Of a stretch of 64,000 nucleotides of DNA, positions 13,636 to 38,747 are shown piece by piece. The DNA lies in contig DASZRW010000059.1 of NCBI GenBank assembly GCA_035549015.1, positions 265-64,264 of the forward strand. The letters run 5' to 3'. This DNA is from Candidatus Kapaibacterium sp. (GTDB lineage: Bacteria; Bacteroidota; Ignavibacteria; OLB7). A program made the translations under genes and the position numbers. Position 1 is the stretch's first letter. Each line of letters begins with the position of its first letter. Below the pieces are notes generated by a model. The model was not told the DNA's origin, did no database searches, and saw only the letters and a program-made list of their open reading frames with translations.

Positions 13636-15324
13636 CTACAGCCCCGCGAGAAACGTCCCCAGATTTGCTCCGGTGTCCAGCTCCAGCTTCTTCCGGATGT
13701 TGTACTTGTGTGCGTGGATGGTGCGGATGGAGGTGTAGAGCAGATTGGCGATATCCTTCGTGGAGAGGTCAATCCGCACGAGCGAGCAGACCCGGATCTC
13801 CGTTGGCGTGAGCGAGGGATAGCGTTCCGCCAGCGTGTGCACGAAGTCGTGATGCAGCGTGCCGAGCTGCTCCTCGAAGCGCTTCCAGTCCTCGTCACCG
13901 TGCTTGGCGCTCTCGATCTTCGAGAGCATTTCGTTGATCGTGGCGCGTTCATGCTGCCCGCCTCCCAACAGCCCGGACACCTGCGCCTTCATCTCATCGA
14001 TCAGCTCCTTCTTCTGCACCAGGTTCAACGCCATCGCCGTGAGCTCGTTCTGCTTCAGCCGCATCTCCGCCTCCAACTGTGCCGTTCGCAGGCGATACAG
14101 CTCGCGCTCGCGTTCGGCCTTCTCCAGGTCGAAGCGAACCTGAATCTCCGCCAGCGCCTTCTGCCGTTCCTCCCCTGCGATCTCCTCGCGCAGGCGTGCA
14201 TGGCGTTTGAAGTGAACGAGCGCGCGGGTGGGGTCGCCAAGCGATTCGTACGTGCCGGCGATCGCGTGGTGCAACTCGTGCTGCAGATGTGGCTGGTCCA
14301 GTTCGTGCGCGATGCGCAGCGCCTGATCGAACACGAAGAGCGCCTCCTCGTGTGCACCGAGACGTGAACGGATGCCGCCGATCGCGAGCAGCGCGCGGGC
14401 CCGGAGCGCATCGTCCGATCCCGAGTCCAGCAATGCGTACGCGCGAACCGCAAACCCGAGCGCGATATCGTCGTGCCGCAGCTCGCTCTGGATGCCGGCA
14501 ATGGCCATCAACGCGCGCGCCACATTCTCCGGATCGCCCAGCGCCTCGTAGATCGCTATCGAGCGCAGCGCGTGCTCCATCGCCGTCTCCAGGTTGCCGG
14601 CCGCATGGTACAGGTCGCCGAGCGCCGTGAGCGCGCGCACCTCCTGATAGCGGTTGCCGCTCTCGCGGAACGCCGCGATGCTTCGGTTGAGACAGTCGAA
14701 CGCGGCATCGCGATTCCCCACGCGGCGATACAGCGTCCCAACCGCAAGGAGTGCCGCACCGGCTCCATCCAGATCGCCCAGCCCCTCGCGGATTGCAAGC
14801 GCTTCGAGTTGCAGATCGAGCGCGAGCGGGAAGTCCCCGATATCGGCGCGCATGGTTCCAAGCGCTGCAAGCACGGCGCTCTCATGCGCGGCAAGGCCGT
14901 GCTGCCGTGCAGCCGCATGTGCCGATCGATACCACCCCAGTGCCTGCTGCGGATCGCCTGCAGCGGCGAACGCGTCGCCAAGCATGGTGGCGGTGGCAAC
15001 CTCCCCGGCATGATCGCCAAGCTCGCCGAACATCTCGTGTGCCTCACCGAGATGCCGTACCCCGTCCGCATGACGGCCGGACGCGATTGCGCATCGCCCC
15101 TGCCAGCGCGTGAGCTCCGCAAGCGCCTCGGCATCGCGAAGCTCCGTTGCCAGCCGTACGCCGTTCCCGGCAAGCCCGAGGGCGTAGTCCGGATCGTGCG
15201 CGGCCGCCTCCGCAATCGAGCCGCGTATCGTCTCCAGGCGCCGCGCGGAATCGCGCGCCATCCGCAGGCGCTGCTCGATTGCACCAACTACCTCGTGTTG
15301 CGATGTGCTGATACCTGCCCTCAT
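13636..15324 (-). CDS. TPR-repeat transcriptional regulator with C-terminal LuxR-type HTH (paralog 1)
   Basis: Multiple TPR-like repeats, a central coiled coil, and a C-terminal LuxR/GerE HTH (LTPTEIRVCSLVRIDLSTKDIANLLYTSIRTIHAHKYNIRKKL). Confidence 0.85.
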   Translation of the reverse strand: MRAGISTSQHEVVGAIEQRLRMARDSARRLETIRGSIAEAAAHDPDYALGLAGNGVRLATELRDAEALAELTRWQGRCAIASGRHADGVRHLGEAHEMFGELGDHAGEVATATMLGDAFAAAGDPQQALGWYRSAHAAARQHGLAAHESAVLAALGTMRADIGDFPLALDLQLEALAIREGLGDLDGAGAALLAVGTLYRRVGNRDAAFDCLNRSIAAFRESGNRYQEVRALTALGDLYHAAGNLETAMEHALRSIAIYEALGDPENVARALMAIAGIQSELRHDDIALGFAVRAYALLDSGSDDALRARALLAIGGIRSRLGAHEEALFVFDQALRIAHELDQPHLQHELHHAIAGTYESLGDPTRALVHFKRHARLREEIAGEERQKALAEIQVRFDLEKAERERELYRLRTAQLEAEMRLKQNELTAMALNLVQKKELIDEMKAQVSGLLGGGQHERATINEMLSKIESAKHGDEDWKRFEEQLGTLHHDFVHTLAERYPSLTPTEIRVCSLVRIDLSTKDIANLLYTSIRTIHAHKYNIRKKLELDTGANLGTFLAGL

Positions 15325-15390
15325 TGCTCTCTGAATGGAATGGCATAATATACGGCCCCTCTGTATCCAGCCTCTCCCTCAACAACCAGG

Positions 15391-15825
15391 ATGAATGCCA
15401 TGGACGAAAGCATCGCAGTTGGAACCACGTCGCCAACCATTATCGTTCCGGTTCCCTCGGGGAGCGAGATATTCGTCTATACCCGCTTCGTGGGCACGGG
15501 TGCGAAGTCCGTGACGATCACGCCCGACACGCAGCCCCCCATGGTTGTCTCGAACTGTCCGGAGAACATCACTTCCAACACGTACTCCTTCCGGAACAAC
15601 TCCTCCTCCTCGATCAATATCACCATCGCGTCCGTTGGCTATCTGGTGCCGTGCGGCCAGGCGCCCATGGCACAGGCGTCCATGACGCCGATCGCCGCTT
15701 CATGGTGCAGCCAGGACGGCAAGGTGGGCAACACCCTCTACGGCATCGGGCCGTCGCCGTACCAGGATACGATCGGGATTACCGTGGTGGTGCAGATCGG
15801 CGTCCCCATCAACGCCGTTCCGTAA
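15391..15825 (+). CDS. Small protein, member of a 5-copy paralogous family (S1)
   Basis: 144 aa, divergent from regulator paralog 1. C-terminal motif IGITVVVQIG is shared with four other small proteins in the window. Confidence 0.55.
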   Translation: MNAMDESIAVGTTSPTIIVPVPSGSEIFVYTRFVGTGAKSVTITPDTQPPMVVSNCPENITSNTYSFRNNSSSSINITIASVGYLVPCGQAPMAQASMTPIAASWCSQDGKVGNTLYGIGPSPYQDTIGITVVVQIGVPINAVP

Positions 15826-15923: not shown

Positions 15924-18866
15924 TCAGGCTGTCCGTACGGTTTCGGCATTGATGCTCCGAAGCCGAAGAACGTCGTTGTGGTTGGCGCCAAGAGTCTGCT
16001 CCATCATCCGGATGGCCTGCTGCATGAGTGACTCGCCGGCCGCCGCATCACCGGCGGCATGCAGTGTCCATCCCAGGCGAAAGGTGCTGTTGATCGTTTC
16101 AACATTGTCGTCTCCAAGCGCGTAGCGTCGTATCTGCAGCGCACGCCGAAAGAGCGTAATCGCCTCCGGCATTTCATCGCGGCCTCGCATGACTCCGGCG
16201 AGATTCGTCACTGCCACTGCCACCATCGGATGATTCGGGCCCAGCGTTCGTTCGTAGATGCCGATCGCCTCGCGATACAGGCGGTCGGCATCCTCCGTGA
16301 TGCCCTGGCTGTGAAGCGCGAACGCCATGTTCGTGATGTTCGATGCCGCCTCCGGATGCTCCGCTCCCAGCGTTGCCCGGTTCAGTTCGAGTGCCTGCGA
16401 GAAGAATGCATGGGCCGCCTGGTGCTCGCCGGTTGCCGTCCGGACCGCGCCGAGCGTGTTGAAGACCATCGCCATGAGCAGCGGTTCCCGCGCAACATGT
16501 GCGTTGCAGAGCGCCAGTGCCTGCTGCAGTTCCTCCTCCGCCTCGGCGAAACGTCCCACGGCATAGAGCAGGGCGCCGAGATCCGCCATGTTGCGCGCCA
16601 CGTCGGGATGATACTCCCCGAGCGAGCGGCGGCGAACCGCGAGGGCGCGCCGCGATGACTCGATCGCCTCGTCGCTGCGGAAGACGTGATACAGGAGGGT
16701 GACAAGCGTATCGAGCGCCCCCGTCATCTCCAGCGTATCGCCCTGCCCATCGCCGGCGCGCATCCGCAGCGAGCGGCGGCAGAGCGCCTCGGCATCGGCA
16801 TAGCGTCCGGCCTCGAAGAGAAATCGTGCGATGGCATCGAGCGTGGCGGGAAGCGCCGACGGATCGGCCGTGCGCTCGTATTCCTTCAGACTCTGTGCGT
16901 ACGCAGGGCCCATCTCCACACGCTCGCCGATCTCCAGCCAGTAGTCGAGAAGATCGTACCCCCCGTCTGCGCCGAGAAGCGTTGTGGCGATCGGAATCGA
17001 TTCGATGCAGGCGGCAAGCTCCTCCCGGCGCCCGGCCTGCAGCCACTGCCACGGCTCCTCGAACGCCCGGCGTGCGGATACCGGTTGCGACCGGAAGAAT
17101 GTTGCAATGCGCACGTGCACATCGCCGGCCGCGTTGCCATTCTCCGCCGCCAGATATCGCGCCGCCACGGCATCGCGCAGATAGTCGTGGTAGAAGGTGA
17201 GAAGATTGTCGCGCTGAATCAGATGATGATCCATCGCCGTGAGCAGGAGATCGAGCCGGCCGGCATCGGCGCCGGTGATCGCGTGCAGCTCGGCGCGGCC
17301 CAGCCCCTGGCGCGACGCCCTGATAAGCGTGGCGACGTCGCGAACAAGCGCCTCGCCGTGCTCCGCTTCCAGACGGCGCAGCACACGGTCGAACAACTCC
17401 GTGAGATTGTGCGCCTCCAGATAGTACTCGATGCGATCGTTCACCTCGGCGCTCGTGCGGGCGCGCCGCATCTCCTCCGCGCCGGTGCGGAGGAAGAGTG
17501 GCGTGGCGCCCGCGCTGCTCTCGGAGAGCCTCGTGAGCTGCGTGCCGGAGATGGTGCCGCCGAACTCCTCGATGTAGCCGCGCAGCACCTCACGCCGTTC
17601 GCGCAGCGTGAGCGGGCGTACATCCAGCTCCGGCCATCCGCGAGCGCGCAGCCGCGCAAGGCTTTCGCCTCCGGTGGTGGAAACGATCAACCGCACCTTC
17701 GGCTGAAGATATTCGGGCAGCCAGCCCAGCGACTGCGACTCCAGGTCCAACTGGTTCAATGCATCGATGGCAAGCACAAGCTCCTCGTTCTGCACGTTGG
17801 CCAGCCAGACCGGAAACGCCTCCTCGATCTCCGCGCTTCGTTCCGGCAACGCCGTCTCCAGCGCGTACCGTTGCCGGATCTCCTCCATCACGCGCCGCAT
17901 GAGCGCATGATGGCTGCCGCCCCCCGTTCCGCAGCCAACGTAATGTTCGATCACGAACGCGTCCGGATGGCGCTCGCGGTAGCGGCTGCACCAGTGTGCG
18001 ATCAGCGCGCTCTTCCCTCCTCCTGAAACCCCGGTGATCACCATGCCCGGATTGCCGCCGGCCTCTCCGCTCCCTTCCCGGTGCGCCTTCCCCTGCTCCT
18101 CCAGATGCCGGTTGAGGCGTGCCACATAGTCATCCACATCCAGATAACTCCGGCGCCGCGTGAGTGCGTAGGCCTGGTGCGCTCGACGCTCCGCTTCGAT
18201 TGTTCCGGTACTCTCCATCGATGAGAGCGATGCCTCGATCACCCCCATGAGATCGTTCTGTATCCACCGCGCAAGCACTTCCGGTTCGGCGGCCCGCTCC
18301 CGTACGGGGAATCCGCTCCTCCTGATGCGTGCCTTCAATGCGGCAAGGCGTTCGGCGCCCGTCCCGCTTCCGGCGTCGAACCCCTCTGCGTCAGCCGCGC
18401 GTTCCGTATTCGCGCCGATCCCCTCCTCATCCTCCACGATGTAGAAGAATGCCCGCGACTCCATGGGCGGATGTCGAAGCGCGCCTTCGATCATCAACAT
18501 CTCGAGCAGCCCCATCCCTTCCTGCAGCGCTCCGTGCAGCCACGGGTGGCGGAGAAGCAGGCCGGTATTCTCCACGTCCGCATGTGTGGGAACCCATCCG
18601 TACGATCTCCCGGCAAGCCCGAGCAGGATGGGCCGTTCCCGCTGCAGCAGATCGAGCGCGAGTGCCAGGCGTCCCCCGTGCGGCATACCGGCCCGCGATG
18701 CCGGGCTGCAGGGATCGATCACCACGAGTTGTGCCTCCCGCTCGCGGCAGATCCGTTGGAGTTCCGGAAATGTCTGCGTGAGAAGATGGTCCGGAAGCGG
18801 ACCGGCTTCATCGCCGGAGCGGGCGAGAACGATCGTGATGGTTGGATGGGCACCGGTTGGTTGCAT
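15924..18866 (-). CDS. STAND NTPase (NB-ARC-like) with C-terminal TPR repeats (paralog 1)
   Basis: Walker A GVSGGGKSAL and Walker B LVLAIDALNQLD. The IVSTTG and GATPLFL (GxPL) motifs are typical of AP-ATPase/NB-ARC. The C-terminal repeats are TPR_12-like. The start is inferred at MQPTGAHP. Confidence 0.85.
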   Translation of the reverse strand: MQPTGAHPTITIVLARSGDEAGPLPDHLLTQTFPELQRICREREAQLVVIDPCSPASRAGMPHGGRLALALDLLQRERPILLGLAGRSYGWVPTHADVENTGLLLRHPWLHGALQEGMGLLEMLMIEGALRHPPMESRAFFYIVEDEEGIGANTERAADAEGFDAGSGTGAERLAALKARIRRSGFPVRERAAEPEVLARWIQNDLMGVIEASLSSMESTGTIEAERRAHQAYALTRRRSYLDVDDYVARLNRHLEEQGKAHREGSGEAGGNPGMVITGVSGGGKSALIAHWCSRYRERHPDAFVIEHYVGCGTGGGSHHALMRRVMEEIRQRYALETALPERSAEIEEAFPVWLANVQNEELVLAIDALNQLDLESQSLGWLPEYLQPKVRLIVSTTGGESLARLRARGWPELDVRPLTLRERREVLRGYIEEFGGTISGTQLTRLSESSAGATPLFLRTGAEEMRRARTSAEVNDRIEYYLEAHNLTELFDRVLRRLEAEHGEALVRDVATLIRASRQGLGRAELHAITGADAGRLDLLLTAMDHHLIQRDNLLTFYHDYLRDAVAARYLAAENGNAAGDVHVRIATFFRSQPVSARRAFEEPWQWLQAGRREELAACIESIPIATTLLGADGGYDLLDYWLEIGERVEMGPAYAQSLKEYERTADPSALPATLDAIARFLFEAGRYADAEALCRRSLRMRAGDGQGDTLEMTGALDTLVTLLYHVFRSDEAIESSRRALAVRRRSLGEYHPDVARNMADLGALLYAVGRFAEAEEELQQALALCNAHVAREPLLMAMVFNTLGAVRTATGEHQAAHAFFSQALELNRATLGAEHPEAASNITNMAFALHSQGITEDADRLYREAIGIYERTLGPNHPMVAVAVTNLAGVMRGRDEMPEAITLFRRALQIRRYALGDDNVETINSTFRLGWTLHAAGDAAAGESLMQQAIRMMEQTLGANHNDVLRLRSINAETVRTA

Positions 18867-21641: not shown

Positions 21642-21786
21642 GATTCTCTCCTGTATCGAGCGTTGATGTCGAGTTACGTTGTCGCGGAACCTTGCTGGCT
21701 GCGCATCGCGGAAGCGCACGCGAAGGCGCGCCGGCCTCGGGGCCTTTCTCCTGAGCGCCTGCCGACGGGCATGAATGGCCCCAGCC

Positions 21787-22647: not shown

Positions 22648-22683
22648 GTATTGAGTTCGTTATGCACGTGATGGTGTTGGCTG

Positions 22684-24959: not shown

Positions 24960-26681
24960 TTACGTAGGCCGGGCTCCGTGAAGGCCGGCGAGGAATGTGG
25001 TGAGGTTCATCCTCGGGCTCAGGCCAAGCTTCCTGCGGATGTTGTGGCGGTGCGTATGAACGGTGCGCACCGATGTGAACAGGAGGTTCGCGATTTCCCT
25101 GGTGGAGAGGTTGATGCGGGTGAGCGAGCAGATGCGAAGCTCCGTTGGCGTCAGCGCCGGCCATTGCTGCGAGAGATGCTGCAGGAAATCCTGATGCGGC
25201 GTATCCAGCTGTCCCTCGAATGCAAGCCAGTCGCTTTCTCCCCCGGAGGCGTGGCGCAGCTCGGCGATCATCCTCTCCACGGAATCATCTCCGCTTCCTT
25301 CCTGATTCCCGGCCCGTGCCGCCCGTGTGGTGTGCTGCAGTTTCTGCAGGCGCCGCTCCAGCGTTTCAAGCAGCTCGTTCTTCTGAACCAGGCGCAGGGA
25401 CATCGCAGCGATCTCGCTCTGCCGCGCGCGCGCCTCGGCCTCCAACGTCTCGGCGCGCAGACGGTAGGCCTCCCGCTCGCGGTCCGAACGTTCCAGATCG
25501 AATCGTACCTGCAACTCCGCCAGAGCGCGTTGCTTCTCGACGCCGGCCAGCTCCTCGCGCAGCGCTCCATGGAGCCTGCAATGTTCCAGCGCGCGCTCGC
25601 TGCGCCCAAGCCGGTGATACAGCGCCGAGAGCGCGGCATGCGCTTCCGCCTGTTGCTGAAGCGCGCCGGTTGCTCGTGCCAGGCCCAGCACCTGATCGAA
25701 AATGAAGAGCGCGCGATCGTATTCTCCGATGCCGGCATGCAGCCGGCCAAGCGCCAGAAGAATGCGAACGCGCAGAGCGTCATCGGAGCCGTCGCGCAAC
25801 GAGGCATAGGCGCGCATCGCCATCGCGAGCGCCGCGGCGGGTTCTCCCATCTGTTCGTGAATCTCGCTTATCAGGATCATCACGGCGCAGGCGCTCTGCG
25901 CGTCGTTCAACATGTCGTAAATTGTCAGCGCACGTAGTGCATGGTCGATCGCGCGCCGAGGCTCGCCGCGCCAGAGGTCGATCTCCGCCATGCGCGTACG
26001 CGCCTCAATTTCCCCCAACCGATTCCCCGTCTCCCGACATAGAACGATGCTGCGTTCCAGCGCCTCGATTGCGCCCGGTGCGTCGTGTGTGCGCATGTGG
26101 AGCGCAGCCAGCGATGCAAGGATGCGTGCGGCCGCATGGCGATCGCCCTGCATCTCCTGCAGAGCAAGGCTTTCCAGGTAGCGCTCCATCGCCTGTGCGT
26201 AATCGCCGATCGATGCGTACAGGTCGCCCAGCGATTCGAGCGCGGCGGCGCGGGTCGCCGGGGCCTGGCTGCCGGCCTCCTCCAGCGCCGTGTGGTACCA
26301 TCGATGGGCCTGCGTGCGATCGCCCGCGCCCGTGAACGCCTGCGCAGCGGCAAGGGCGCAGGAGGATGCGCTGTCGTGCCGTTGAAGCTCGGAGAATATT
26401 CCATGTGCCTCGCGGAGATCCTCCAGTGCCGCGGTATGCTGCTCCAGCCGTTGCAACGCGCAGCCGCGTAGATACAGCAGCATTGCGGAGGAGGCGATAT
26501 TCCGCAGGCGTACGGAGATCGCGTACCCTTCGGATGCCAGGCCGGCTGCATACGATGGCTGCTCGCGGACGAGAGCCGGGAGCGATGCCAGGATCAACTC
26601 CAGCTTCCGCGCGGCATCGCTCGTCATCAGCAGGCGTTGCTCGATCTGCCCGGTATCCGTGGTTCCCATTTCGATCTGCAT
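24960..26681 (-). CDS. TPR-repeat transcriptional regulator with C-terminal LuxR-type HTH (paralog 2)
   Basis: Same architecture as paralog 1. C-terminal LTPTELRICSLTRINLSTREIANLLFTSVRTVHTHRHNIRRKL. The start is inferred at MQIEMGTTD. Confidence 0.85.
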   Translation of the reverse strand: MQIEMGTTDTGQIEQRLLMTSDAARKLELILASLPALVREQPSYAAGLASEGYAISVRLRNIASSAMLLYLRGCALQRLEQHTAALEDLREAHGIFSELQRHDSASSCALAAAQAFTGAGDRTQAHRWYHTALEEAGSQAPATRAAALESLGDLYASIGDYAQAMERYLESLALQEMQGDRHAAARILASLAALHMRTHDAPGAIEALERSIVLCRETGNRLGEIEARTRMAEIDLWRGEPRRAIDHALRALTIYDMLNDAQSACAVMILISEIHEQMGEPAAALAMAMRAYASLRDGSDDALRVRILLALGRLHAGIGEYDRALFIFDQVLGLARATGALQQQAEAHAALSALYHRLGRSERALEHCRLHGALREELAGVEKQRALAELQVRFDLERSDREREAYRLRAETLEAEARARQSEIAAMSLRLVQKNELLETLERRLQKLQHTTRAARAGNQEGSGDDSVERMIAELRHASGGESDWLAFEGQLDTPHQDFLQHLSQQWPALTPTELRICSLTRINLSTREIANLLFTSVRTVHTHRHNIRRKLGLSPRMNLTTFLAGLHGARPT

Positions 26682-26806: not shown

Positions 26807-27268
26807 ATGGATTCCCCATCCACACCGGCCGGCTCTGTTGCCCGGTCGGTTATCGATTTCAAGCTCCCGGTGGCGAAGAACCAGCAGGCGTTGGTGCTGG
26901 TTCGGTTCACCGGGACGTTGGCGAAGTGGGTCTCCGTGTACTTCCCGAACCGCATCAAGGTGGTGTCCAGTTGCGAAGCCGGCACCACCGCCGTGCCCAT
27001 CGTGCTGGACAATCACGGCGAGGAGCCGATGGATCTGCAGCTCGTGCCGGAATGCAGCGAGAAGGAGTGTCCCGATCAGAATCCCTCCGCGCAGCTGAAC
27101 GTGATTCTCCAGTACGAATCGTCCAGCCCGATGCGCCACTGGCTGCTCTCCGCATCGGAGATATCGGAATCCGATACGATCTCCATCACCATCATCGTGC
27201 AACCCGGCATCATCATCGACCCCGGAAGCGGAGATGCAGTACGTATTCCGGCCCGCACCATGCCGTGA
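26807..27268 (+). CDS. Small protein, paralogous family member (S2a)
   Basis: 153 aa. ATG preceded by a GGAG-like RBS. C-terminal ISITIIVQPGIII motif. Confidence 0.5.
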   Translation: MDSPSTPAGSVARSVIDFKLPVAKNQQALVLVRFTGTLAKWVSVYFPNRIKVVSSCEAGTTAVPIVLDNHGEEPMDLQLVPECSEKECPDQNPSAQLNVILQYESSSPMRHWLLSASEISESDTISITIIVQPGIIIDPGSGDAVRIPARTMP

Positions 27269-27357: not shown

Positions 27358-27765
27358 ATGCTGCAATCCGACAATCCAGCCTTCCCCGCTGCTCTGCCTG
27401 TTCCAACGTTCCCCATGGTAGGGACGTCGGACGCCAATCTGATCTGTCTTGTCCATGTCGCGTTTCTGGGGCCTACTGAAAAGGTCGTCACCTTCACTCT
27501 CGTCGGTCGCAGCGCCCCCTGGATCACCGTGAACTCCGGCGATGGTCCGTTCTGGAGCCGCATATTCCAGCCGAAGGACGGGCTGAGCCTGATAGGGGTG
27601 CCCGATGTGGCGAACTGCGCGTGGTGGTCGCCGCTCGGTGCCTGCGCCGGCAGCATATACTCCGCCTTCACCTACGGATATTCGCTCAACACCGGCATCG
27701 ATCAGGATGCCGTGCTGATCACCATTATCGTGCAGCCGGGAATCATCGCTCCCATTCCACTGTAG
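27358..27765 (+). CDS. Small protein, paralogous family member (S2b)
   Basis: 135 aa. C-terminal VLITIIVQPGIIAPIPL motif. Confidence 0.5.
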   Translation: MLQSDNPAFPAALPVPTFPMVGTSDANLICLVHVAFLGPTEKVVTFTLVGRSAPWITVNSGDGPFWSRIFQPKDGLSLIGVPDVANCAWWSPLGACAGSIYSAFTYGYSLNTGIDQDAVLITIIVQPGIIAPIPL

Positions 27766-27786
27766 CCGGCGCTCGATGGCGTCGTG

Positions 27787-30700
27787 TTACAGTGCGAACT
27801 CCATCCGGTACGCCAGTTGTGCCTGGATCTCGTTGCAGATCGCATGCAGGGAGATGATGTCCGGATGGGTTGCGCCCAGGTGCGCCTCGTGAATCGGAAT
27901 GGCCCGGCTGTAGATCTCGAACGCCTCGCCCAGACGTCCCTGCATGCGCAGCGCCCCGGCCAGGCGGGTAGCGCTGCCGGCCGTTTCCAATGCGTCCGCT
28001 CCGAACAGATCGCGGCGGATAACATACGCGCGCCGCAGCAGCTGCTCCCCCTCCTCCAGCTCGCCGCTGTCGCGCAGCATCATGCCGAAGCTGGTCAGGA
28101 AGAGAGCGGTCCTTGGATGCCGTGCGCCGAGAATCCGCTCGGCGCACGCAAGCGCATGCCGGTAGTGCACGGCTGCTGCGGAGGTATTGCCCATCTGTTG
28201 AAGCGCGAATCCCAGGTTCACCCGGTTCGATGCCGTCTCCAGATGTCCCTCTCCCAGCAGGCAGCCGTTCACCGCAAGGGCGCGTTCGAAGTACATGGCT
28301 GCCTCGGCGAAGTCCCCGCGAGCCACCCGCATCGCGCCGAGATTGTTCACGATCATCGCAACCGCAGCCTCGTCCGCGTCGTTGGCGAGGCAGAGCGCCT
28401 CCAGCAGGTGGATGTCCGCCTCCGCATGGTCCCCGCATGCATGGTACATCGCACCCAGCGCGGCCAGATTGCGTGCACGGTGCTTCGCATCCATTCCAGA
28501 CGCAGCTTCGCGCAGGCGCAGCGCGCGTTCGGAGACGCGGATCGCCCGCTCCCACTCTCCCGTGTGATAGAGCAGCGTTGCGTACGAATCCAGTGCCGGG
28601 AGCATCGTGGGGTTGTCCTCACCGTGAGCAGCGCCGCGCTCCTCCAGTGCCGTGCGGCACAGGTGCTCCGCCTCGGCGTAGTGCCCGGCGTGAAGCAGAA
28701 GGCCGGCAATGGCCTCGCGTGCTGCGACGAGATCCAGCGAAGGGTTCGCTTCCAGCTGGCAGGCCTGCATCGCAGTGCGATACGTTTCCACCATGCCGTA
28801 CCGATTCTCCAGCGCCCTCCAGTATTGCAGCAGTTCGTACGGGTCGCCGTCGGCAAGCAGCATCGATGCCGTCCGGATATCCGCGATGGCGGTGTGAAGC
28901 TTCCGCCATGCGCCGGCATGCATTGCCTGCCACGGTATCTCCTCCACGTGGCGGCGTGCAATGGGCTGGGATGCAAACCAGTCCGCGATCCGCTCGCGGA
29001 TCTCCGGGATGCGTCCGGGGCGTTCCACCAGATAGCGCCGCTCCACGGCTCTGCGGAATCCGTCGTGGTGGAAGCGGAACAGTCCCTCGTGGCCGATCAG
29101 ATGGCAGCCGAGCGACGCCAGCACCTCCTCCGTCTCCCCTTCGTCCAACAGGCCGATCGCCGCGATCTCCTGCCGCGCAAGGCCGCGGCGGGCCGCCCAT
29201 AGCAGGGTGAGCACCGTGCGCATCCGTGCCACGCCATGCCGGCCTTCCAGTTGTTCCAGTACGCGATCGAACAGCTCCGGCAGCGTCTCCGCCGCGAGAA
29301 GGCGATTCAGGAGAGCCGGTTCATCTGCGCCGGAAGCGGTTGCGTTCAGCCTCTCCAGTTGCGTTCTCAGATAGAGGGGGTTGCCTCCTGCCGTCCCCGC
29401 CCCGATGCGTGCGTACCAGTCGCCGTAGCGTGCCTCCCCGAACTCGCGAACGTATCGGGTTATCAGGTCGCGCCGTTGCTTCTGCGTAAGCTGCACCATG
29501 CGAAGCTCCGGCCAGGCTCGCGCGTGCAACGCCGCCAACGGTTCGGTATCGGTGGTGGAGACGATCAGCAGCACATGCGGCGGAATATGTTCAGGAAGCC
29601 AGGAGAGATCCCGGGAAGCTTCGTCGAGCTGATCGAGGCCGTCCACCACCAGCACCAGGTTCTCATGTTGAAGATGTCCCAGCCAGAGCGGAAACGCCTC
29701 ACGAATGCCGGCGGCATCCGTTGGGAGCGGATCGTCCACGCCGAGGCGTTCCCGTATCTCCGCCATGATGTGGCGCAGCACCGTGGCGCCGTCGTTGCCG
29801 GCGGATGCGGCCGCCACGTGATGCTGCACGATGAAGAGGTGGGGATGCTCGCTCCTGATCCGTTCGCACCAGTATGCCAGGAGTGCGCTCTTTCCCGCGC
29901 CCGATTCACCGGACACCACCAGCCCGGCATTGCGCTCCGGCTCGTCCCTCTCCGCAGCCGCCGTTCCGGGCTGGTTGTTCAGGAAATCGTCCAGGCGCTC
30001 CAGGTATCCCGGAATCTCCATGTAGGCATGCGTGCGCGAACGCGCGAACGATCGGTGCATCCGGCGCTCCGCATCGAGAGGCGAGCCGGTGGCAGCGGGA
30101 AAGAGGCGGTTGATCAGGTCCATCAGGTCGCGGCGAACGAGGTCGAGCAACTGCTCCCGCGTATGCACTGTGTGGTGCAGCGTCTGCCCGCTGGATCGGA
30201 TCATGTCCAGGATGCGCTCGCGTGCGGCGGCCGCAACGTTGCGCCGGCGCCGCGGCATCGCATCGTAGTACGACATTTCCTTCTCCGCCTGCGTACCGGA
30301 GACCGATGGAGGGGGTGCGGTGGCGTAGGCCTCCGGATGTTCCGGAGCCGGGTCATAGGGGAAGAACAACATCCTTCCGGCGAGCGCCGGGTTCCGGAGC
30401 GCGCCTGCGAGCGCCTCCATCGAAAGAAGGAACGGTGAGCCGGCAGTCCCTGCGCTGCGCCAGCGATACGGGTCGGTGCGGGCATCGCGGCCATCTGCGG
30501 CAGGGGGGCCCTCTACCGCCGGGTTGCTTCCAACGATCACCAGCACATAGATCCGCTGCCCGGTGTGCGCTGCAGGGGGGTGGTTGAAGATCGTCTCACC
30601 GTATGCCCCGGCTGTATCTGTGCCTGCAAGCTCGCACGTGGCGATATCTCCGCCGCGCGCGCGGCAGATGCCGCTCAGCTCCGGCAGCAGCGCCTGAGCC

Positions 30701-30804
30701 AGCCATGCTCGTTCCGCATCGATATCGCACTGTATGCCGACGATCGCGATCCGGATCAACGGGAACGCATCGTGCGGCGATGGTGCCGAGGGCTCGCAAC
30801 TCAT
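27787..30804 (-). CDS. STAND NTPase (NB-ARC-like) with C-terminal TPR repeats (paralog 2)
   Basis: Walker A GESGAGKSAL, Walker B LVLVVDGLDQLDE, IVSTTD and GGNPLYL motifs, and a TPR_12-like C-terminal array. The start is inferred at MSCEPSAP. Confidence 0.85.
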   Translation of the reverse strand: MSCEPSAPSPHDAFPLIRIAIVGIQCDIDAERAWLAQALLPELSGICRARGGDIATCELAGTDTAGAYGETIFNHPPAAHTGQRIYVLVIVGSNPAVEGPPAADGRDARTDPYRWRSAGTAGSPFLLSMEALAGALRNPALAGRMLFFPYDPAPEHPEAYATAPPPSVSGTQAEKEMSYYDAMPRRRRNVAAAARERILDMIRSSGQTLHHTVHTREQLLDLVRRDLMDLINRLFPAATGSPLDAERRMHRSFARSRTHAYMEIPGYLERLDDFLNNQPGTAAAERDEPERNAGLVVSGESGAGKSALLAYWCERIRSEHPHLFIVQHHVAAASAGNDGATVLRHIMAEIRERLGVDDPLPTDAAGIREAFPLWLGHLQHENLVLVVDGLDQLDEASRDLSWLPEHIPPHVLLIVSTTDTEPLAALHARAWPELRMVQLTQKQRRDLITRYVREFGEARYGDWYARIGAGTAGGNPLYLRTQLERLNATASGADEPALLNRLLAAETLPELFDRVLEQLEGRHGVARMRTVLTLLWAARRGLARQEIAAIGLLDEGETEEVLASLGCHLIGHEGLFRFHHDGFRRAVERRYLVERPGRIPEIRERIADWFASQPIARRHVEEIPWQAMHAGAWRKLHTAIADIRTASMLLADGDPYELLQYWRALENRYGMVETYRTAMQACQLEANPSLDLVAAREAIAGLLLHAGHYAEAEHLCRTALEERGAAHGEDNPTMLPALDSYATLLYHTGEWERAIRVSERALRLREAASGMDAKHRARNLAALGAMYHACGDHAEADIHLLEALCLANDADEAAVAMIVNNLGAMRVARGDFAEAAMYFERALAVNGCLLGEGHLETASNRVNLGFALQQMGNTSAAAVHYRHALACAERILGARHPRTALFLTSFGMMLRDSGELEEGEQLLRRAYVIRRDLFGADALETAGSATRLAGALRMQGRLGEAFEIYSRAIPIHEAHLGATHPDIISLHAICNEIQAQLAYRMEFAL

Positions 30805-30887
30805 TGCCGGTTCCGAAAGAATGGTTGACACGAACTGCTGCAATCGCATGCGGCGGCCTGGCCCATGCGGTTGCCGGACATATCGCG

Positions 30888-32828: not shown

Positions 32829-34511
32829 CTAGAGCGAGGCGAGGAAGGTAGTGAGGCTCACCTTCGAGTCCAGGCGAAGTTTGCGGCGGATGTTGTACTT
32901 GTGCGAGTCCACCGTGCGAACGGAGGTGCAGAGAATTGCGGCGACATCCTTGGTGGAGAGATTGATGCGGGCAAGCGAGCAGATCTTCAACTCCGTCGGC
33001 GTCAGCAGCGGGCAGCGCTCCGAAAGGAGCCGGATGAAGTCCTGATGGAGATGATCGAGCTGCTGCTCGAATATCTTCCAGTCCGCATCGGCATGCTTCG
33101 TGCTGGTGATCTCGCTGATCATCCGTTCAACCGTATCGGTGCCGGAGCGGCGGCTCTCGCCGTGCAGCTTCTCGAGTTGATACTGCATGTCGGCGAGCAG
33201 TTCCTTCTTCTGCAGAAGGTTTACCGCCATGGCCGTGAGCTCGTTCTGCTTCAGTCGCATCTCGGCGCGGAGCCCTTCAACCTGCAGGCGATACATTTCC
33301 CGCTCGCGCTCCGCCTTCTCCAGATCGAACCGAACCTGCAGTTCGGCGATTGCATGCTGCTTCTCGCGACCGGCCAGTTCGTTCCGGAGTTCCGCGAAAT
33401 GGCGATAGTGTTCGAATGCCCATTCAATCTGTCCAAGGTGGTGATAGGCATGCGAGATGGCGCCGTGCACCTCGTACTGAAGACGCCGATCGTCGATCGC
33501 GCGCGCCAGTGCCAGCGCCTGATCCAGCACGAAGACGGCGTCGTCCATCGCGCCGAGTGCGGTGTGCAGGCGCCCCATGTCCAGCAGAAGCTCCACGCGC
33601 CGCGTGTCGTCGGGCGACTGGCCCAGCAGCGAGTAGGCGCGCATTGTGAGGCCCAGCGCGGCATCGTACTCATGCCGTGCCGCATGAACGCGTCCCAGCA
33701 TCGCCAGCACGGTCCCCACATTCTGCAGGTCCCCCAGCGTCTCGTAGATCGTGAGCGCCCGAAGTCCGTGTTCGGCTGCGCTCTCGCCGTTGCCGGTGGC
33801 GAGATCTATTTCGGCGAGATGCCGCAGTGCGTCCACTTCACGGAGACGATTCCCGGATTCCCGGAACACCTCGGCGCTTCGGCGCAGATATTCGCGGGCG
33901 GTCGTGTGGTCGTTCGTGCGTCCGTACAGGATGCCGACCGCGGCCAGGGCATGCCCCACACCGTCGTGTACATCGCTCGATTCATACAGCCGGAGAGCGT
34001 CCAGATAATATCCGAGCGCCTTCGGGTAGTCGCCGATGCTCATTCTCAGATCGCCGATGGAGAGTGCCGCCGCGGCCTGGAGGTCCGATGCCCCGGCATG
34101 CATTGCCCGTTCGAGTGCCGTATGCAGCCAGTCGATCGCATGCGGGGCCATGCCGGCGGCGAGGTGCGCCCGGCCTGCCTGCAGTGCGCAGACGGCGGCT
34201 TCCGAGTCGTGGCCAAGATCCACATTGATGCAGTACGCCTCCACAAGGTCGGCAGCCCCCGCATCGTGATTTCCGAGAACAACGTATGCCTCGCCGCGAC
34301 GGCGCAGAATGCGTGCAGCTGCCGCCATGTTGCGCGACGAGGCGGCGAGGCGATACCCCTCGCTCGCCAGGCCGACACTGTACGGCGCGGCGCCGGCCGC
34401 GGCCTCGTCGAGAAATTCCAGAATCAGATCGAGCTTCCGATTCCGATCCTGCGCCATCAACAGCCGGCGTTCGATCGCCTCGATAATTCGTTCCTGGTCT
34501 GCTGTCCCCAT
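32829..34511 (-). CDS. TPR-repeat transcriptional regulator with C-terminal LuxR-type HTH (paralog 3)
   Basis: Same architecture. The C-terminal 200 aa are nearly identical to paralog 1. The start is inferred at MGTADQERIIEAIERR (561 aa), which matches the paralog lengths. The ORF-track 5' extension overlaps the opposite-strand genes. Confidence 0.85.
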   Translation of the reverse strand: MGTADQERIIEAIERRLLMAQDRNRKLDLILEFLDEAAAGAAPYSVGLASEGYRLAASSRNMAAAARILRRRGEAYVVLGNHDAGAADLVEAYCINVDLGHDSEAAVCALQAGRAHLAAGMAPHAIDWLHTALERAMHAGASDLQAAAALSIGDLRMSIGDYPKALGYYLDALRLYESSDVHDGVGHALAAVGILYGRTNDHTTAREYLRRSAEVFRESGNRLREVDALRHLAEIDLATGNGESAAEHGLRALTIYETLGDLQNVGTVLAMLGRVHAARHEYDAALGLTMRAYSLLGQSPDDTRRVELLLDMGRLHTALGAMDDAVFVLDQALALARAIDDRRLQYEVHGAISHAYHHLGQIEWAFEHYRHFAELRNELAGREKQHAIAELQVRFDLEKAEREREMYRLQVEGLRAEMRLKQNELTAMAVNLLQKKELLADMQYQLEKLHGESRRSGTDTVERMISEITSTKHADADWKIFEQQLDHLHQDFIRLLSERCPLLTPTELKICSLARINLSTKDVAAILCTSVRTVDSHKYNIRRKLRLDSKVSLTTFLASL

Positions 34512-34727: not shown

Positions 34728-35150
34728 ATGACAGGTGCAGGTATCGTCACCATCGAGGAACTCGAAGCGATCACATCCATTCCGATCACCGAATTCCTTC
34801 CGGACTCCTACTGCCAGATCGTAGTCGAGTCCACGTTGAACGAGACCGTCGTGGTTTCGATCGTTGATGCCAAACTCATCGCAGTCGAAGGCGACAAGCT
34901 GGCCGGCGGGGAATCGTATACAACGCGCATCTCCGGCGAGGATATGTCGCTCCAGCCCTACACGCTGAACATCCTCTCGCGAACCGCGATGATTCATACC
35001 TGCAAGACCGGCTACTACACACTCCCGGACGACGAGACGAATTATCAGATCGAACTGTGCCGCATGGTGCCGTTTCCCGACACGACAACGGACGGGCAGA
35101 TCAACATCACGATCATCCTCCAGCCCACGGACATCCTCACGGAGCCGTAG
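34728..35150 (+). CDS. Small protein, paralogous family member (S3a)
   Basis: 140 aa. AGGAGG RBS before the ATG. C-terminal INITIILQPTDIL motif. Confidence 0.5.
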   Translation: MTGAGIVTIEELEAITSIPITEFLPDSYCQIVVESTLNETVVVSIVDAKLIAVEGDKLAGGESYTTRISGEDMSLQPYTLNILSRTAMIHTCKTGYYTLPDDETNYQIELCRMVPFPDTTTDGQINITIILQPTDILTEP

Positions 35151-35229: not shown

Positions 35230-35658
35230 ATGGCGGAACACTGGCATGCTCGTCATGGAGGACCCATTCGTGTACCGGTATTTCCCGTAATCGATCCCGG
35301 CGTCGGACTCTATGTGGTTATTCATATCGTGTTCAACGGGTCCGGGCTGAAGAGGGTGACATTCACACGCCCGGGAGAAACGATGCCGTGGCTTGTGGCG
35401 GAATTGCCGGGGACCGGTTTCTGGAATCATGTATACCGTCATCAGGATGGCATCAGCCGCCTTGCGATATCCGGAATGGACTCGATGCCGGATTGGACGT
35501 TCCTCGGCCAGAAGAAAATGACGAGCGACGGCGTCGTCTCCGCGTACACGTGCCAGTATCTCCTTGCGGAGAGCCCGCATGAGTCCGTGCTCGTCACCAT
35601 TCTTCAACTGCCCGGATCGCCGGGCGGAGCTGCTGAAGCGCCGCGCCGTGTAGTGTGA
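35230..35658 (+). CDS. Small protein, paralogous family member (S3b)
   Basis: 142 aa. C-terminal VLVTILQLPGSPG motif. Confidence 0.5.
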   Translation: MAEHWHARHGGPIRVPVFPVIDPGVGLYVVIHIVFNGSGLKRVTFTRPGETMPWLVAELPGTGFWNHVYRHQDGISRLAISGMDSMPDWTFLGQKKMTSDGVVSAYTCQYLLAESPHESVLVTILQLPGSPGGAAEAPRRVV

Positions 35659-35795
35659 TGCTTCCGACGGAGTATGCACCGGGCCATGCCGCCCACGATG
35701 CCGATCGAATCACGACGGAAGGTGTCGTGGGCGGCATGCACAATAGCTTCCTTCCATGTTTTCGTGTCGATCGGATCATGCGGCCGGCAGCGCGT

Positions 35796-38747
35796 TCACT
35801 GCTGCTCGGCGCGCTCTTCGATTTCATCCATGATTCTGAATATCTGGATTATCTCCGGATGGTCGCCTCCAAGCACCGGCTCCTGCACCACGATCGCCTC
35901 CCTGTACAGCGCCAGCGCCTCGCCGTACCGTTCCTGCCGGCAGAGCGCACCGGCCAGGCGTGTCATGCTGGTTGCCGTTTCGATCGCATCCGGACCGAAC
36001 GTCTCGCGGCGAATATCTGCGGCGCGCATCAGCAGATCCGTTGCCTCGTCAAGCTGGCTGGTCTCCCGCAACAACATGCCGAGGTTGGTGAGGAAGAGCG
36101 CAACGTGGGGATGCTGCGAGCCAAGTACGCGTTCGGCGATGCCGAGTGCCTCGCGATACTGCGCAGTTGCGGCGGCAGTGTTGCCGGTGCGCTGCAGCGC
36201 GAAGCCAATGTTCACCAGATTCGACGCCACCTCCAGATGTTCGGCGCCCAGCAGCCGCCGGTTCAACTGCAATGCATGTTCGAAGAAGCGGGCCGCCTCC
36301 TCGAAGTGGCCAAGGGTTGCCCGAAGCGCGCCGAGATTGTTGGCGGCGAGGGCCAGGATTGTGTCGTCCGTATCGTTGGCAATGGTGAGGGCGCGCATCA
36401 GATAATCCTCGGCGTCGTCGTAGGCATGCATGGCATGGCACACGGCTCCGAGATCGGCGAGGTTCTTCGCGATCTCCGGGCCGGTGATGCCGTCTCCCGT
36501 CTCGCGAACGGCCAGTGCGCGGCGCGATATCTCGATCGCCTCGGTGTAGCGTCCGGTGTGGTACAGCAATGCTGCGAGCGAGTCCAGCGTCCCCAGGGAG
36601 TCGCGCCAATCGGGCCGGCCGGCCGTGTGGTGCACGGAGAGTGCGCTGCGGCAGAATCGTTCGGCGGCCTCGTATTCTCCGGCCTGCACGAAGAACTCCG
36701 CCATCGTACGAAGCGCGGCAACCAGCGCGCGTGGCGAGGTGTCCGCCTGCCGGTATCGCTCCATGGCAGTGAAGTATGCCTGCGCCATCTCACCACGATT
36801 CCCCACAACCAGCCAGTAGTGGAGGAGCTGGTAGGGATCGTTATCCTTCAGCAATTCCATCGCAAGCGGGATATCCGTGATCGCGGCGCGCAGCTCCTCC
36901 ACCTCACCGATGGCGGCGAGCTGCCACGGCAACTCCTCTGCGCGGCGGGGCGTCTCCTGCTCGGAGCCGAAGTAGCCGGCGATGCGCCAGCGCACGCGTT
37001 TCAACTCATCGCGACGCCCGAACAGATATCGCCGGTCCACGGCCCGGCGCATGTGGTCGTGATAGTAGGTCAGCAGCCCCTCGCGCTCCATGAGATGATA
37101 GTTCAGTGCCTGCACGATCGCGGCAAGCTCCTCGCGTTCGATGCCGCTGGCTCCGGCCAGTTCCGTTTCCGAGAGTCCGCGCCGCGATGCAAGAATCAAC
37201 GTCAGCACCGTGCGGAGATTCTCCCGGCCGAAACGTTCCTCCAGCCGCACAAGCACGCGTTCGAACAACTCGGGGAGATCGCGTGCCGTGAGGTAGTAGT
37301 CGATGTGCTCGTTCAGTTCCGCGGCCGATCCGCCGCGGCCGCTCTCCTCCAACTGTGTTCGCAGATGCAGCGGGTTTCCTCCCGTGCTCGGCAGGCTGAT
37401 GCGATCCAGTTGCGCAAGGTTGTGGCGCCTGCCGAACTCCGCAGCGTACCGGTGCGCGAGATCGCGGCGCTGCTCGAGCGTGAGCGGTTGAACGTGCAAC
37501 TCCTCCCACTCGCGCTCGCGCAATACTTCCAGCGCGTGCGACTCCGTGGTGGAGACGATCACCGTTACACGGGGCGGTATGTAGAGCGGCAGCCATGCCA
37601 GATCCTGCGACTCCGGTTGAAGCTGGTCCAGCCCGTCGATGATCAGCACCAGATTCTCGTTCTGCACGTGGCCAAGCCAGAGCGGCAACGCCTTCTCGAT
37701 CTCCGCGCCGTCTGCAGGCACGGCATCGGCAAGTGCGTAGCGTTCGCGCAGCTCCATCATCACATGGCGCAGCAGTGGAACATGGTCGCTTCCGGACGAT
37801 GTGATGGCAACGTGGTGGAGAACGATGAACGCCTCACGACGTTCGTGTTGCAGCCTGCCGGTCCAGTATGCCAGGAGGGCGCTCTTGCCGCAGCCGGAGG
37901 GGCCCGCAACAACCAGCCCCGTTCTGCCGGAACGTTGCTCTGCGGATCTCCGGCGGTTCTCCGTCCTGCCGAACGCGAATTGCTCCAGCCGTTCCAGATA
38001 TTCCGGAATCTCCACATATGCCCGCGTGCGCGAGAGGGCGAACGCCTCATGCGCCCGTCGTTCCAGCGCAAGCGGCGTGAGCGTTCTGCAGGCTGGGAGG
38101 AGCCTGTCGATGACGGCTTCGAGATCAGCGCGGATATGGGCAACGAGTTCGTCGCGGCTCTCGATCCCGTCGCGCAGCGGATGCCGGCTGGAACGAATCA
38201 GCATCGCCGCTTCTTCGGCGGCGCGCAGCGCATGTTCCGCCGCGCGGGTCTCCGGCTCGATCCCCCCATGCCGTGCCGGCATGTAGAAGAACAGCCTGCC
38301 GACGGTTGCGGTATTGGAAAGGACGTACGGCAGCAGCGACGCGGGCACAACGCCCGCACCGCCGCCGGATGCGCGTTGCCACGGAAAGCGCCTGCTCGTC
38401 TCACCGTTCGATCCGGTTTGCAACCCGGCACTGTCCGTCCCGACGATTGCAATCACATATGCATGCCTGGCCGCCACCTCATCGAGCTGGCGCTGCAGCA
38501 ATGCCTCGGACTGTGCCGCCTCCGTTCCCGCTCCGGTGTCGGCGGCGAATTTCATCTCGGCGAAGTCGCCCCCGCGTGCCCGGCAGATATCCCGCAGTTC
38601 ATCGAAGAGATGCATCGAGAGATGCGCACGCTCCGCGGTCACATCCCCAAGGACTCCGATTACGGCAACACGCAGACGATTCGATTGATCGAGCGGGGAT
38701 GGCTCCAATGGTATACCACTCAACTCCAGCTCCTTACGGCTTGGCAT
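35796..38747 (-). CDS. STAND NTPase (NB-ARC-like) with C-terminal TPR repeats (paralog 3)
   Basis: Walker A GPSGCGKSAL, Walker B LVLIIDGLDQLQPE, IVSTTE and GGNPLHL motifs, and a TPR_12-like C-terminus. Confidence 0.85.
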   Translation of the reverse strand: MPSRKELELSGIPLEPSPLDQSNRLRVAVIGVLGDVTAERAHLSMHLFDELRDICRARGGDFAEMKFAADTGAGTEAAQSEALLQRQLDEVAARHAYVIAIVGTDSAGLQTGSNGETSRRFPWQRASGGGAGVVPASLLPYVLSNTATVGRLFFYMPARHGGIEPETRAAEHALRAAEEAAMLIRSSRHPLRDGIESRDELVAHIRADLEAVIDRLLPACRTLTPLALERRAHEAFALSRTRAYVEIPEYLERLEQFAFGRTENRRRSAEQRSGRTGLVVAGPSGCGKSALLAYWTGRLQHERREAFIVLHHVAITSSGSDHVPLLRHVMMELRERYALADAVPADGAEIEKALPLWLGHVQNENLVLIIDGLDQLQPESQDLAWLPLYIPPRVTVIVSTTESHALEVLREREWEELHVQPLTLEQRRDLAHRYAAEFGRRHNLAQLDRISLPSTGGNPLHLRTQLEESGRGGSAAELNEHIDYYLTARDLPELFERVLVRLEERFGRENLRTVLTLILASRRGLSETELAGASGIEREELAAIVQALNYHLMEREGLLTYYHDHMRRAVDRRYLFGRRDELKRVRWRIAGYFGSEQETPRRAEELPWQLAAIGEVEELRAAITDIPLAMELLKDNDPYQLLHYWLVVGNRGEMAQAYFTAMERYRQADTSPRALVAALRTMAEFFVQAGEYEAAERFCRSALSVHHTAGRPDWRDSLGTLDSLAALLYHTGRYTEAIEISRRALAVRETGDGITGPEIAKNLADLGAVCHAMHAYDDAEDYLMRALTIANDTDDTILALAANNLGALRATLGHFEEAARFFEHALQLNRRLLGAEHLEVASNLVNIGFALQRTGNTAAATAQYREALGIAERVLGSQHPHVALFLTNLGMLLRETSQLDEATDLLMRAADIRRETFGPDAIETATSMTRLAGALCRQERYGEALALYREAIVVQEPVLGGDHPEIIQIFRIMDEIEERAEQQ

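Follow-up and report, generated by a model that had tools for sequence, protein, structure and literature searches.

Five small genes in a Candidatus Kapaibacterium contig

The window analyzed in this study, a 64,000-nucleotide stretch of a contig (DASZRW010000059.1) of the uncultured soil bacterium Candidatus Kapaibacterium, carries five small open reading frames (ORFs) on its forward strand, designated S1, S2a, S2b, S3a, and S3b, which are distributed over three modules and lie between genes for tetratricopeptide repeat (TPR) proteins. S1, the only small protein of module 1, is encoded at 15400..15825 and consists of 141 amino acids when the ATG at 15400 is taken as its start (another ATG is available at 15391), ending in ...DTIGITVVVQIGVPINAVP. 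Module 2 encodes S2a (26807..27268; 153 amino acids, with the C-terminal stretch ...DTISITIIVQPGIII...), for which the source records also have a gene call, and S2b (27358..27765; 135 amino acids, ending in ...DAVLITIIVQPGIIAPIPL). Module 3 encodes S3a (34728..35150; 140 amino acids, ending in ...GQINITIILQPTDILTEP), a fast-evolving and weakly supported member of the set, and S3b (35230..35658; 142 amino acids, with ...ESVLVTILQLPGSPG...). Translation confirmed the five ORFs and the C-termini that had been listed in an earlier note made from the letters of the DNA alone.

Since the GC content of the window is 63% and long spurious ORFs are abundant in such DNA, the coding status of the five ORFs was tested explicitly. 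The GC contents at the third codon positions (GC3) were 0.83 for S1, 0.80 for S2a, 0.74 for S2b, 0.79 for S3a, and 0.64 for S3b, with values of 0.40–0.51 at the second position. Shine-Dalgarno-like AGGA/GGAG elements were located 5′ of S1, S2a, S2b, and S3a (AGGAG before S2a); the element upstream of S1 favors the ATG at 15400 over that at 15391, and the orthologue of S1 also starts at the equivalent of 15400. Orthologues of S1, S3a, and S3b were available from a related metagenome-assembled genome (MAG), GCA_018266795.1 (hereafter JST22), and the ratios of nonsynonymous to synonymous substitution rates (dN/dS) were below 1 in all three testable genes, being 0.13 for S1, 0.21 for S3b, and 0.53 for S3a. 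The orthologue of S3b (L003:10507-10935) is 86% identical, whereas that of S3a (P0005) shares only 63% amino acid identity, with the C-terminal motif identical in both proteins; S3a thus outpaces its neighbors, for which identities of 86–91% and dN/dS values of 0.08–0.16 were obtained. Poor codon usage and missing ribosome binding sites, which the earlier note had named as grounds for discarding the genes, were not what we found: the GC3 values, the Shine-Dalgarno-like elements of four ORFs, and the signature of purifying selection all indicated coding sequences, and the five ORFs are genuine genes.

As had been noted before, a signal peptide is absent from all five proteins, and neither a hydrophobic leader nor a lipobox was found in them or concealed in the upstream in-frame sequence. 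Likewise, the Pfam search for the C-terminal domain Por_Secre_tail, which would mark cargo of the type IX secretion system (T9SS), gave no match among the five proteins.

Four of the proteins and a soil homologue form a very rare family

In pairwise BLASTP comparisons, S2b matched S3b (E = 2e-17) and S1 matched S2a (E = 1.5e-6), and the remaining pairs met at the C-terminal motif only. The L-INS-i alignment was colinear across all members. When each group was left out in turn from the hidden Markov model (HMM), S1, S2a (E = 1.3e-8), S2b, S3b (E = 3.5e-5), and the soil homologue P0012 were each recovered by the rest, and the scores of the recovered members remained positive without the last 28 residues. 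By these sequence comparisons, S1, S2a, S2b, S3b, and P0012 form a statistically supported family. S3a was not recovered by the leave-one-out HMM (score about 4), and its membership is weakly suggested by the motif in the right place, its size, its gene position, and the colinear alignment. The five-member paralogous family with a conserved C-terminal motif that the earlier note had described was hence upheld for four members by BLASTP and HMM, whereas S3a is tied to them weakly.

The motif, [DE]-x-[IV]-x-[IV]-T-[IV]-[IV]-[VL]-Q-P-G, is the best conserved stretch of the family and is degenerate in S3b (VTILQLPG). In all five proteins, the chain runs 7–19 residues beyond P-G. A segment of variable length and sequence, flanked by two cysteines in most members, is located just before the motif, and the N-terminal 15–25 residues of the family contain no cysteine at all. 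A loose regular expression of the motif gave five matches in the six frames of the window, of which four were C-termini of the family; being nearly unique to these C-termini, the motif stands out beyond chance.

The proteins had been described earlier as beta-rich and devoid of any recognized motif, which agreed with the all-beta models presented below and with the lack of a match to any known family in Pfam, NCBIfam, PADLOC, and a PDB sequence profile. The profile search that had been proposed for the five sequences was carried out and revealed a real but very rare family. The word-index search of 5.8 billion clusters retrieved only the window proteins and their JST22 orthologues, and nothing beyond the five query clusters, P0012, and noise from repeat proteins emerged from the exhaustive profile search of 1.84 billion representatives. 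P0012, a protein of 146 amino acids from farmland soil, is 28% identical to S1 and ends in IGITIVVQVG. One further S1 orthologue (L011, 69% identity) was found by scanning metagenomes, and no family member was found in the viral contigs scanned. The family is very rare, lineage-restricted, and unannotated; its rarity and its confinement to uncultured organisms limit its general importance, unless the regulator pair described below proves to be widespread.

These data bear on the possibility that the ORFs arose by chance in GC-rich DNA and that the motif is a fortuitous hydrophobic stretch, as the earlier note had allowed. The wealth of long spurious ORFs in the 63% GC window, the weak GC3 of S3b (0.64), and the failure of S3a in the leave-one-out HMM are what such a view could draw upon. 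It is effectively refuted by the GC3 of 0.74–0.83 in four of the five ORFs, by the dN/dS values below 1, by the near-uniqueness of the motif expression in the window, and by the homologues sharing the motif, which come from independent soil metagenomes differing in GC content.

The small genes are bracketed by TPR-LuxR and NACHT-TPR genes

Pfam analysis showed that each small-gene unit has a divergent gene for a TPR/coiled-coil/GerE protein of 560–573 amino acids (TPR-LuxR) on one side, and a convergent gene whose product is a STAND NTPase of about 1000 amino acids (NACHT-TPR) on the other, all six of these genes being on the reverse strand. TPR-LuxR 1 (13636..15324; 562 amino acids; TPR_12 1.5e-30, GerE 5.6e-8) is divergent from S1 and shares 95% identity with its JST22 orthologue, with a dN/dS of 0.075. 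TPR-LuxR 2 (24960..26681; TPR_12, GerE 3.8e-9) is divergent from S2a and has 573 amino acids by the source gene call (L001), with the ORF open to 26783. TPR-LuxR 3 (32829..34511; 560 amino acids; GerE 1.7e-8) is divergent from S3a, and its orthologue was called at 560 amino acids as well (dN/dS 0.079). A mechanical ORF of 780 amino acids (32829-35171, reverse strand) crosses S3a on the opposite strand; the real TPR-LuxR 3 of approximately 560 amino acids starts near 34511, and this over-extension is a GC-rich artefact able to mislead annotation.

On the other side, NACHT-TPR 1 (15924..18866; about 980 amino acids; NACHT, AAA_16, HTH_NWD1, TPR_12, and TPR_10 in Pfam) is convergent with S1. NACHT-TPR 2 (27787..30849; 1020 amino acids), supported by Pfam and a gene call, is convergent with S2b, the two stop codons being 21 bp apart. 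NACHT-TPR 3 (35796..38747; 983 amino acids), supported by Pfam, is convergent with S3b and has an orthologue in L003 (dN/dS 0.16). The earlier note had placed every small gene divergent from a TPR-LuxR gene, which is correct for S1, S2a, and S3a, whereas S2b and S3b are the second genes of two-gene units; it had captured the TPR-LuxR side of the context, but not the convergent NACHT-TPR gene present at every unit.

Between the cassettes, the paralogues share 42–47% identity for the LuxR proteins, 38–44% for the NACHT-TPR proteins, and 20–30% for the small proteins. The whole three-part cassette has been duplicated as a unit, giving three copies in this genome. The N-terminal 250–300 amino acids of the NACHT-TPR proteins are conserved across the three paralogues (18100-18866, 30050-30849, and 37950-38747, reverse strand), and this region contains no recognizable effector domain and no match in Pfam, NCBIfam, or PDB sequences. 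It includes a GRSYGWVP-type segment, which may resemble DUF4062. A homologous fragment of the N-terminal region was also present on a 1.2-kb contig (L007) that had been binned as Alphaproteobacteria.

Related cassettes occur in other genomes

JST22 retains modules 1 and 3 in synteny but lacks module 2. The neighborhood of the soil homologue, which the earlier note had suggested examining, revealed the same arrangement on the NACHT-TPR side, in that P0012 is followed at a distance of 23 bp by the 3′ end of a convergent NACHT-TPR gene, whose product is 42% identical to NACHT-TPR 1. Next to the S1 orthologue on L011, only the last ~90 residues of a convergent NACHT-TPR are recognizable (L011:402-1136, reverse strand), and the sequence upstream of them is unrelated; this NTPase copy may be truncated or rearranged.

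Scanning genomes with the alignment of the NACHT-TPR N-terminal regions identified a fourth member of the cassette family in two MAGs, one of Chlorobiota (L009:5797-11150) and one of Ca. Kapaibacterium (L010:5866-11183). It comprises a NACHT-TPR gene whose product lacks the N-terminal domain, a gene convergent with it that encodes a lipoprotein of 173 amino acids, and a divergent TPR-LuxR gene. The TPR-LuxR and NACHT-TPR proteins are 45–46% and 35–41% identical, respectively, to those of the window, and are thus no further from them than the window paralogues are from one another. The lipoprotein, which has an LAIGC lipobox and ends in NNVSIDISLVD..., is encoded in the same orientation as the small genes; comparisons with the small family by HMM, BLASTP, and hhalign were all negative. 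A gene for a large T9SS-tailed Ig-like protein lies upstream of this cassette. Between L009 and L010, the lipoprotein shares 68% identity, compared with 96% and 85% for the two regulators, and the middle gene evolves fastest both here and in the lineage of the window (63–68% identity vs. 85–96% for the regulators). The two TPR proteins are the constant elements of the cassette, and the small gene between them is its variable, fast-evolving element.

Intergenic regions of the cassettes

The divergent intergenic region of module 1 (15325..15399; 75 bp), which is presumed to contain a shared promoter/operator, has 71 of its 75 bases in common with JST22; that is, it is 95% identical between the two MAGs, against a synonymous divergence (dS) of about 0.35 in the flanking genes. 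A 9-mer, GGAATGGCA, followed two bases on by (A/G)ATAT, is common to the regions upstream of S1 and P0012 (window 15337-15345 and L004:53-61). It offers only a hint of a common promoter/operator element, the chance of a shared 9-mer being about 0.08. The TGGCAT/TGGCACG sequences upstream of S1 and P0012 were also considered as sigma-54-like elements, and this reading was rejected after inspection by eye revealed no −12 element at the right spacing.

At the convergent ends, a GC-rich hairpin (27755..27798) covers the stop codons of both S2b and NACHT-TPR 2, with a folding energy of −26.2 kcal/mol and a z-score of −5.0, and none of 200 shuffled sequences folded as well. Between S3b and NACHT-TPR 3, an 18-bp palindromic stem (35685..35737), detected by sequence and folding, is kept in JST22. 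These hairpins between the convergent genes probably act as bidirectional terminators or insulators. Neither of them has a T-tract, which is why the consensus terminator scan misses them.

The small proteins are predicted to be jelly-roll beta-sandwiches

Structure prediction, as proposed in the earlier note, was performed for S1 and S2b with AlphaFold2. Both models showed an all-beta sandwich of eight to nine strands, with a mean predicted local distance difference test (pLDDT) of 61 for S1 and 64 for S2b (predicted TM-score 0.61 for S2b), suggesting that the fold of the family is most likely a single small jelly-roll beta-sandwich. In the models, the motif makes up the last core strand, where the confidence is locally higher (residues 124-132 of S1 and 118-127 of S2b). 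It is thus predicted to be the final buried beta-strand together with its exit turn, not an appended signal, which would explain why it is the best conserved stretch of the family.

This placement bears on whether the motif is a short amyloid or prion-like signal that is templated by the adjacent NACHT-TPR protein. Motifs of the BASS/HET-s type pair NOD-like receptor (NLR) proteins with neighboring effector genes in filamentous bacteria and fungi, and the small genes do adjoin an NLR-type gene. The motif, moreover, lies close to the C-terminus and has many beta-branched residues besides Q and G, and the N-termini of the NACHT-TPR proteins open with the hydrophobic strands TITIVLARSG, IRIAIVGIQ, and LRVAVIGVLG. 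However, both models bury the motif in the core and not in a flexible tail; at the N-terminus of the NACHT-TPR proteins, there is a folded region of ~250 amino acids that holds only generic hydrophobic first strands and no copy of the motif, and the NACHT-TPR proteins of L009 and L010 lack this region altogether. We regard an amyloid signal as very improbable.

The Foldseek search returned Ena2A fibre subunits first, followed by essentially every structure of the PA-IIL family, and the nearest solved folds are those of the PA-IIL/LecB lectins, thrombocorticin, and Ena fibre subunits. Structures of the PA-IIL family were top or near-top for both models (pLDDT 61–64) in two programs. Nevertheless, none of the five proteins matched the Pfam family PF07472 (PA-IIL) at E<=1, and hhalign of the family profile gave a probability of 0.3% against a 14-sequence PA-IIL profile and of 0.1% against LecB alone, with the global mode being negative too. 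The calcium loop E-D-x-T-D-x-D-Y-N-D, which is invariant in the PA-IIL alignment, is absent from the family, and the segments at its position are variable (e.g., IDQD, SESD, PYQD, TDGQ, and PHES). In PA-IIL, the segment before the last strand is the ligand-binding loop, and the terminal glycine carboxylate completes the calcium site of the neighboring subunit. Of the 14 PA-IIL sequences, 13 terminate at G, the end of the chain being ...W-P-L-G. Although the modeled fold is nearest to PA-IIL, we do not assign the proteins to the PA-IIL family, because the profile comparison is negative and both the calcium loop and the chain-terminal glycine are missing.

For the same reasons, it is improbable that the proteins are functional PA-IIL/LecB members, i.e., calcium-dependent sugar-binding lectins that oligomerize via their C-termini. 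Apart from the structural matches, this idea could appeal to the size of the proteins, which is similar to that of the likewise leaderless LecB, to the C-terminus of LecB (DYNDAVVVINWPLG), which looks by eye like DQDAVLITIIVQPG, and to the acidic residue before the last strand in most members. Against it stand the negative profile comparisons, the lack of the invariant calcium loop, and the continuation of the chains for 7–19 residues past the glycine at which PA-IIL stops. Compared with the PA-IIL/LecB family (PF07472, including RS-IIL, CV-IIL, BC2L-A, and sponge thrombocorticin), with which they share no sequence or profile similarity, the proteins are also 20–40 residues longer, and their variable loop is bracketed by cysteines in most members.

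Ena subunits (DUF3992), which form the endospore appendages of Bacillus, are leaderless, cysteine-containing jelly-roll proteins of about 115 amino acids that self-assemble in the cytoplasm (PDB 7a02 title). Ena2A was the top Foldseek match (E = 5e-3) and 7a02 was matched as well, but the TM-scores were just 0.37–0.43, the N-terminal connector cysteines that cross-link Ena subunits are absent from the family, and the phylum and gene context are unrelated.

The small genes as candidate outputs of a two-protein regulatory cassette

We tentatively propose, with slightly less than an even chance of being right, that a regulatory cassette of two proteins has the small genes as its fast-evolving outputs. 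In this proposal, the STAND ATPase and the TPR-LuxR protein would act like a regulator of the MalT/LAL type that is split into two polypeptides: the TPR arrays would sense a signal, the LuxR protein would then switch on the divergent promoter, and the small beta-sandwich proteins would be produced as the output. These proteins might bind a ligand, possibly a carbohydrate, or self-associate at the interface of the cell with its surroundings. The earlier note had left it undecided whether they are regulated outputs, ligands, or partners of each module. The output alternative is favored by the divergent-promoter layout, by the intergenic region of module 1 being more conserved than synonymous sites, and by the hairpins that would shield the small genes from the NACHT-TPR gene converging on them. 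It is further favored by the equally related regulator pairs of L009 and L010 flanking a dissimilar lipoprotein, and by the cargo evolving fastest while the two TPR proteins stay constant.

The partner alternative is unlikely, yet deserves consideration. It holds that the small proteins are self-encoded specific partners of the TPR arrays of NACHT-TPR and/or TPR-LuxR, such as an anti-activator, a co-sensor, or a guarded decoy, which co-diversified within each cassette. TPR arrays are established protein- and peptide-binding modules, the leaderless small proteins share a compartment with the TPR proteins, and modules 2 and 3 provide two small proteins for two TPR proteins. In addition, the three components diverged together upon cassette duplication, and the NACHT-TPR neighborhood is retained even at 28% small-protein identity. 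On the other hand, a single small protein faces two TPR proteins in module 1, and neither TPR gene shares a transcript with the small genes, which are divergent from one and convergent, behind a hairpin, with the other. Moreover, the equally related pair of L009 and L010 flanks an exported lipoprotein, which would be unable to meet cytoplasmic TPR domains.

Several observations weigh against the output proposal and the fold assignment. The output role is read from the genes and the genome layout, and no operator motif or k-mer was found that is common to the upstream regions of modules 1, 2, and 3 and of P0012. An 8-mer, GTTCGTGC, occurs in three module intergenic regions, but its total in the window is not significant (6 vs. 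3.4 expected) and its copies are not conserved in JST22, so it was dropped as an operator candidate. The five proteins are leaderless, whereas their positional analogue in L009 and L010 is a lipoprotein; an output at the envelope or surface would therefore need non-classical export, or else the proteins would have a cytoplasmic role. The NACHT-TPR proteins of the window bear an additional N-terminal domain of ~250 amino acids; if this is an effector, as it could be, the cassette may do more than switch transcription. Finally, the structural models are of moderate confidence (pLDDT 61–64) and were built from alignments of 7–8 sequences, and those of S1 and S2b are not independent, since they share one alignment.

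Regulators of the MalT/LAL type combine an NTPase, a TPR-like sensor, and a LuxR helix-turn-helix (HTH) in one chain. Like these and the AfsR-type regulators, the cassette has a STAND NTPase, TPR sensor arrays (with TPR_MalT matches), and a GerE/LuxR HTH, with the presumed target gene adjacent. It differs in that NTPase-TPR and TPR-LuxR are split over two separate, oppositely oriented genes, and in that its NTPase is of the NACHT or NPHP3-NWD1-like type; the coupling of the two proteins is putative. Similarity to bacterial NLR-like defence proteins (bNACHT and Avs) is seen in the NACHT-TPR architecture with a variable N-terminal region, in the clustering of diverged paralogues, and in the PLD-domain, AAA_16, and ADP-ribosylglycohydrolase genes nearby, but the NACHT-TPR proteins of the window have no recognizable effector domain. 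In PADLOC-DB 2.0, only the generic TPR model PDLC01169 was matched, and the small proteins matched no model. RRNPP-type quorum-sensing pairs likewise place a TPR-containing transcription factor beside a small gene with a conserved C-terminal part. Their propeptides are about 40–60 amino acids long, are secreted via a signal peptide, and belong to Firmicutes (PMC10075063). The family proteins, by comparison, are ~140 amino acids long, predicted to be folded, and leaderless, and the HTH of their regulator is C-terminal and of the LuxR type.

Should the cassette model hold, it would provide a case of a bacterial NACHT-type STAND protein wired to a separate LuxR-type transcription factor and a small fast-evolving output, in contrast to the fused toxic effector with which the known bacterial NACHT proteins act, and the small beta-sandwich proteins would be a new family that may bind ligands or self-assemble. 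A more far-reaching proposal, which we hold to be quite unlikely, is that TPR-LuxR and NACHT-TPR constitute an undescribed two-protein NLR-type switch that is widespread in Kapabacteria/Chlorobiota and always brackets a small diversifying cargo gene. The cargo would here be a leaderless jelly-roll protein that either signals to the TPR arrays or is detected by them, serving as a ligand or guardee encoded by the cell itself. If this were true, the read-out of a bacterial NLR would be the transcription of a variable binding protein, not cell death. As far as our literature searches reached, no description of the cassette was found, nor of a constant pairing of NACHT-TPR, LuxR, and small cargo in the bNACHT and Avs systems. 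The small genes represent a protein family that is new and very rare and to which a fold can plausibly be assigned, and the cassette in which they lie is newly delineated; annotators gain a name and a context for these "hypothetical" proteins, and a compact three-gene unit is flagged.

Neighboring genes

TPR-LuxR 2 is followed immediately downstream, on its own (reverse) strand, by a cluster at 20628-24743. It encodes an S8 subtilisin-like peptidase (23778-24743), a protein with PatG_D and PatG_C domains (22684-23718), a Laminin_G_3 protein (21787-22647), and a second PatG_D and PatG_C protein (within 20628-22055), whose true start is probably near 21770. None of these proteins has an obvious signal peptide, and the whole cluster is absent from JST22, together with module 2. 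The presence of an S8 peptidase, two PatG_D/PatG_C proteins, and a LamG-like protein at this position raises the question of whether the small proteins are substrates or precursors resembling ribosomally synthesized and post-translationally modified peptides, to be processed at the C-terminal motif by the S8 peptidase and the PatG-domain proteins. This is extremely improbable: the cluster accompanies module 2 only and is missing from JST22, which retains S1, S3a, and S3b, and the small proteins are predicted to be folded with the motif buried. Inspection by eye, not backed by a motif search, revealed no recognition sequences of known cyanobactin type.

Downstream of TPR-LuxR 3 and on the same strand, an ORF encodes a beta-rich protein of 237 amino acids (31585-32298, reverse strand; GC3 0.76) with no Pfam match. 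A 210-amino-acid ORF, likewise without a Pfam match, is found at the same position in JST22, the correspondence being by position alone. An ADP-ribosylglycohydrolase gene (12581-13516) is located beside module 1, and the cassettes are further flanked by a gene for a phospholipase D (PLD)-domain protein with a T9SS sorting tail (42224-43678) and by one for an AAA_16 protein of 1117 amino acids, possibly another STAND-like NTPase (43712-47065). Genes of these three kinds are frequent in conflict and defence islands, and all three flank the cassettes in JST22 too.

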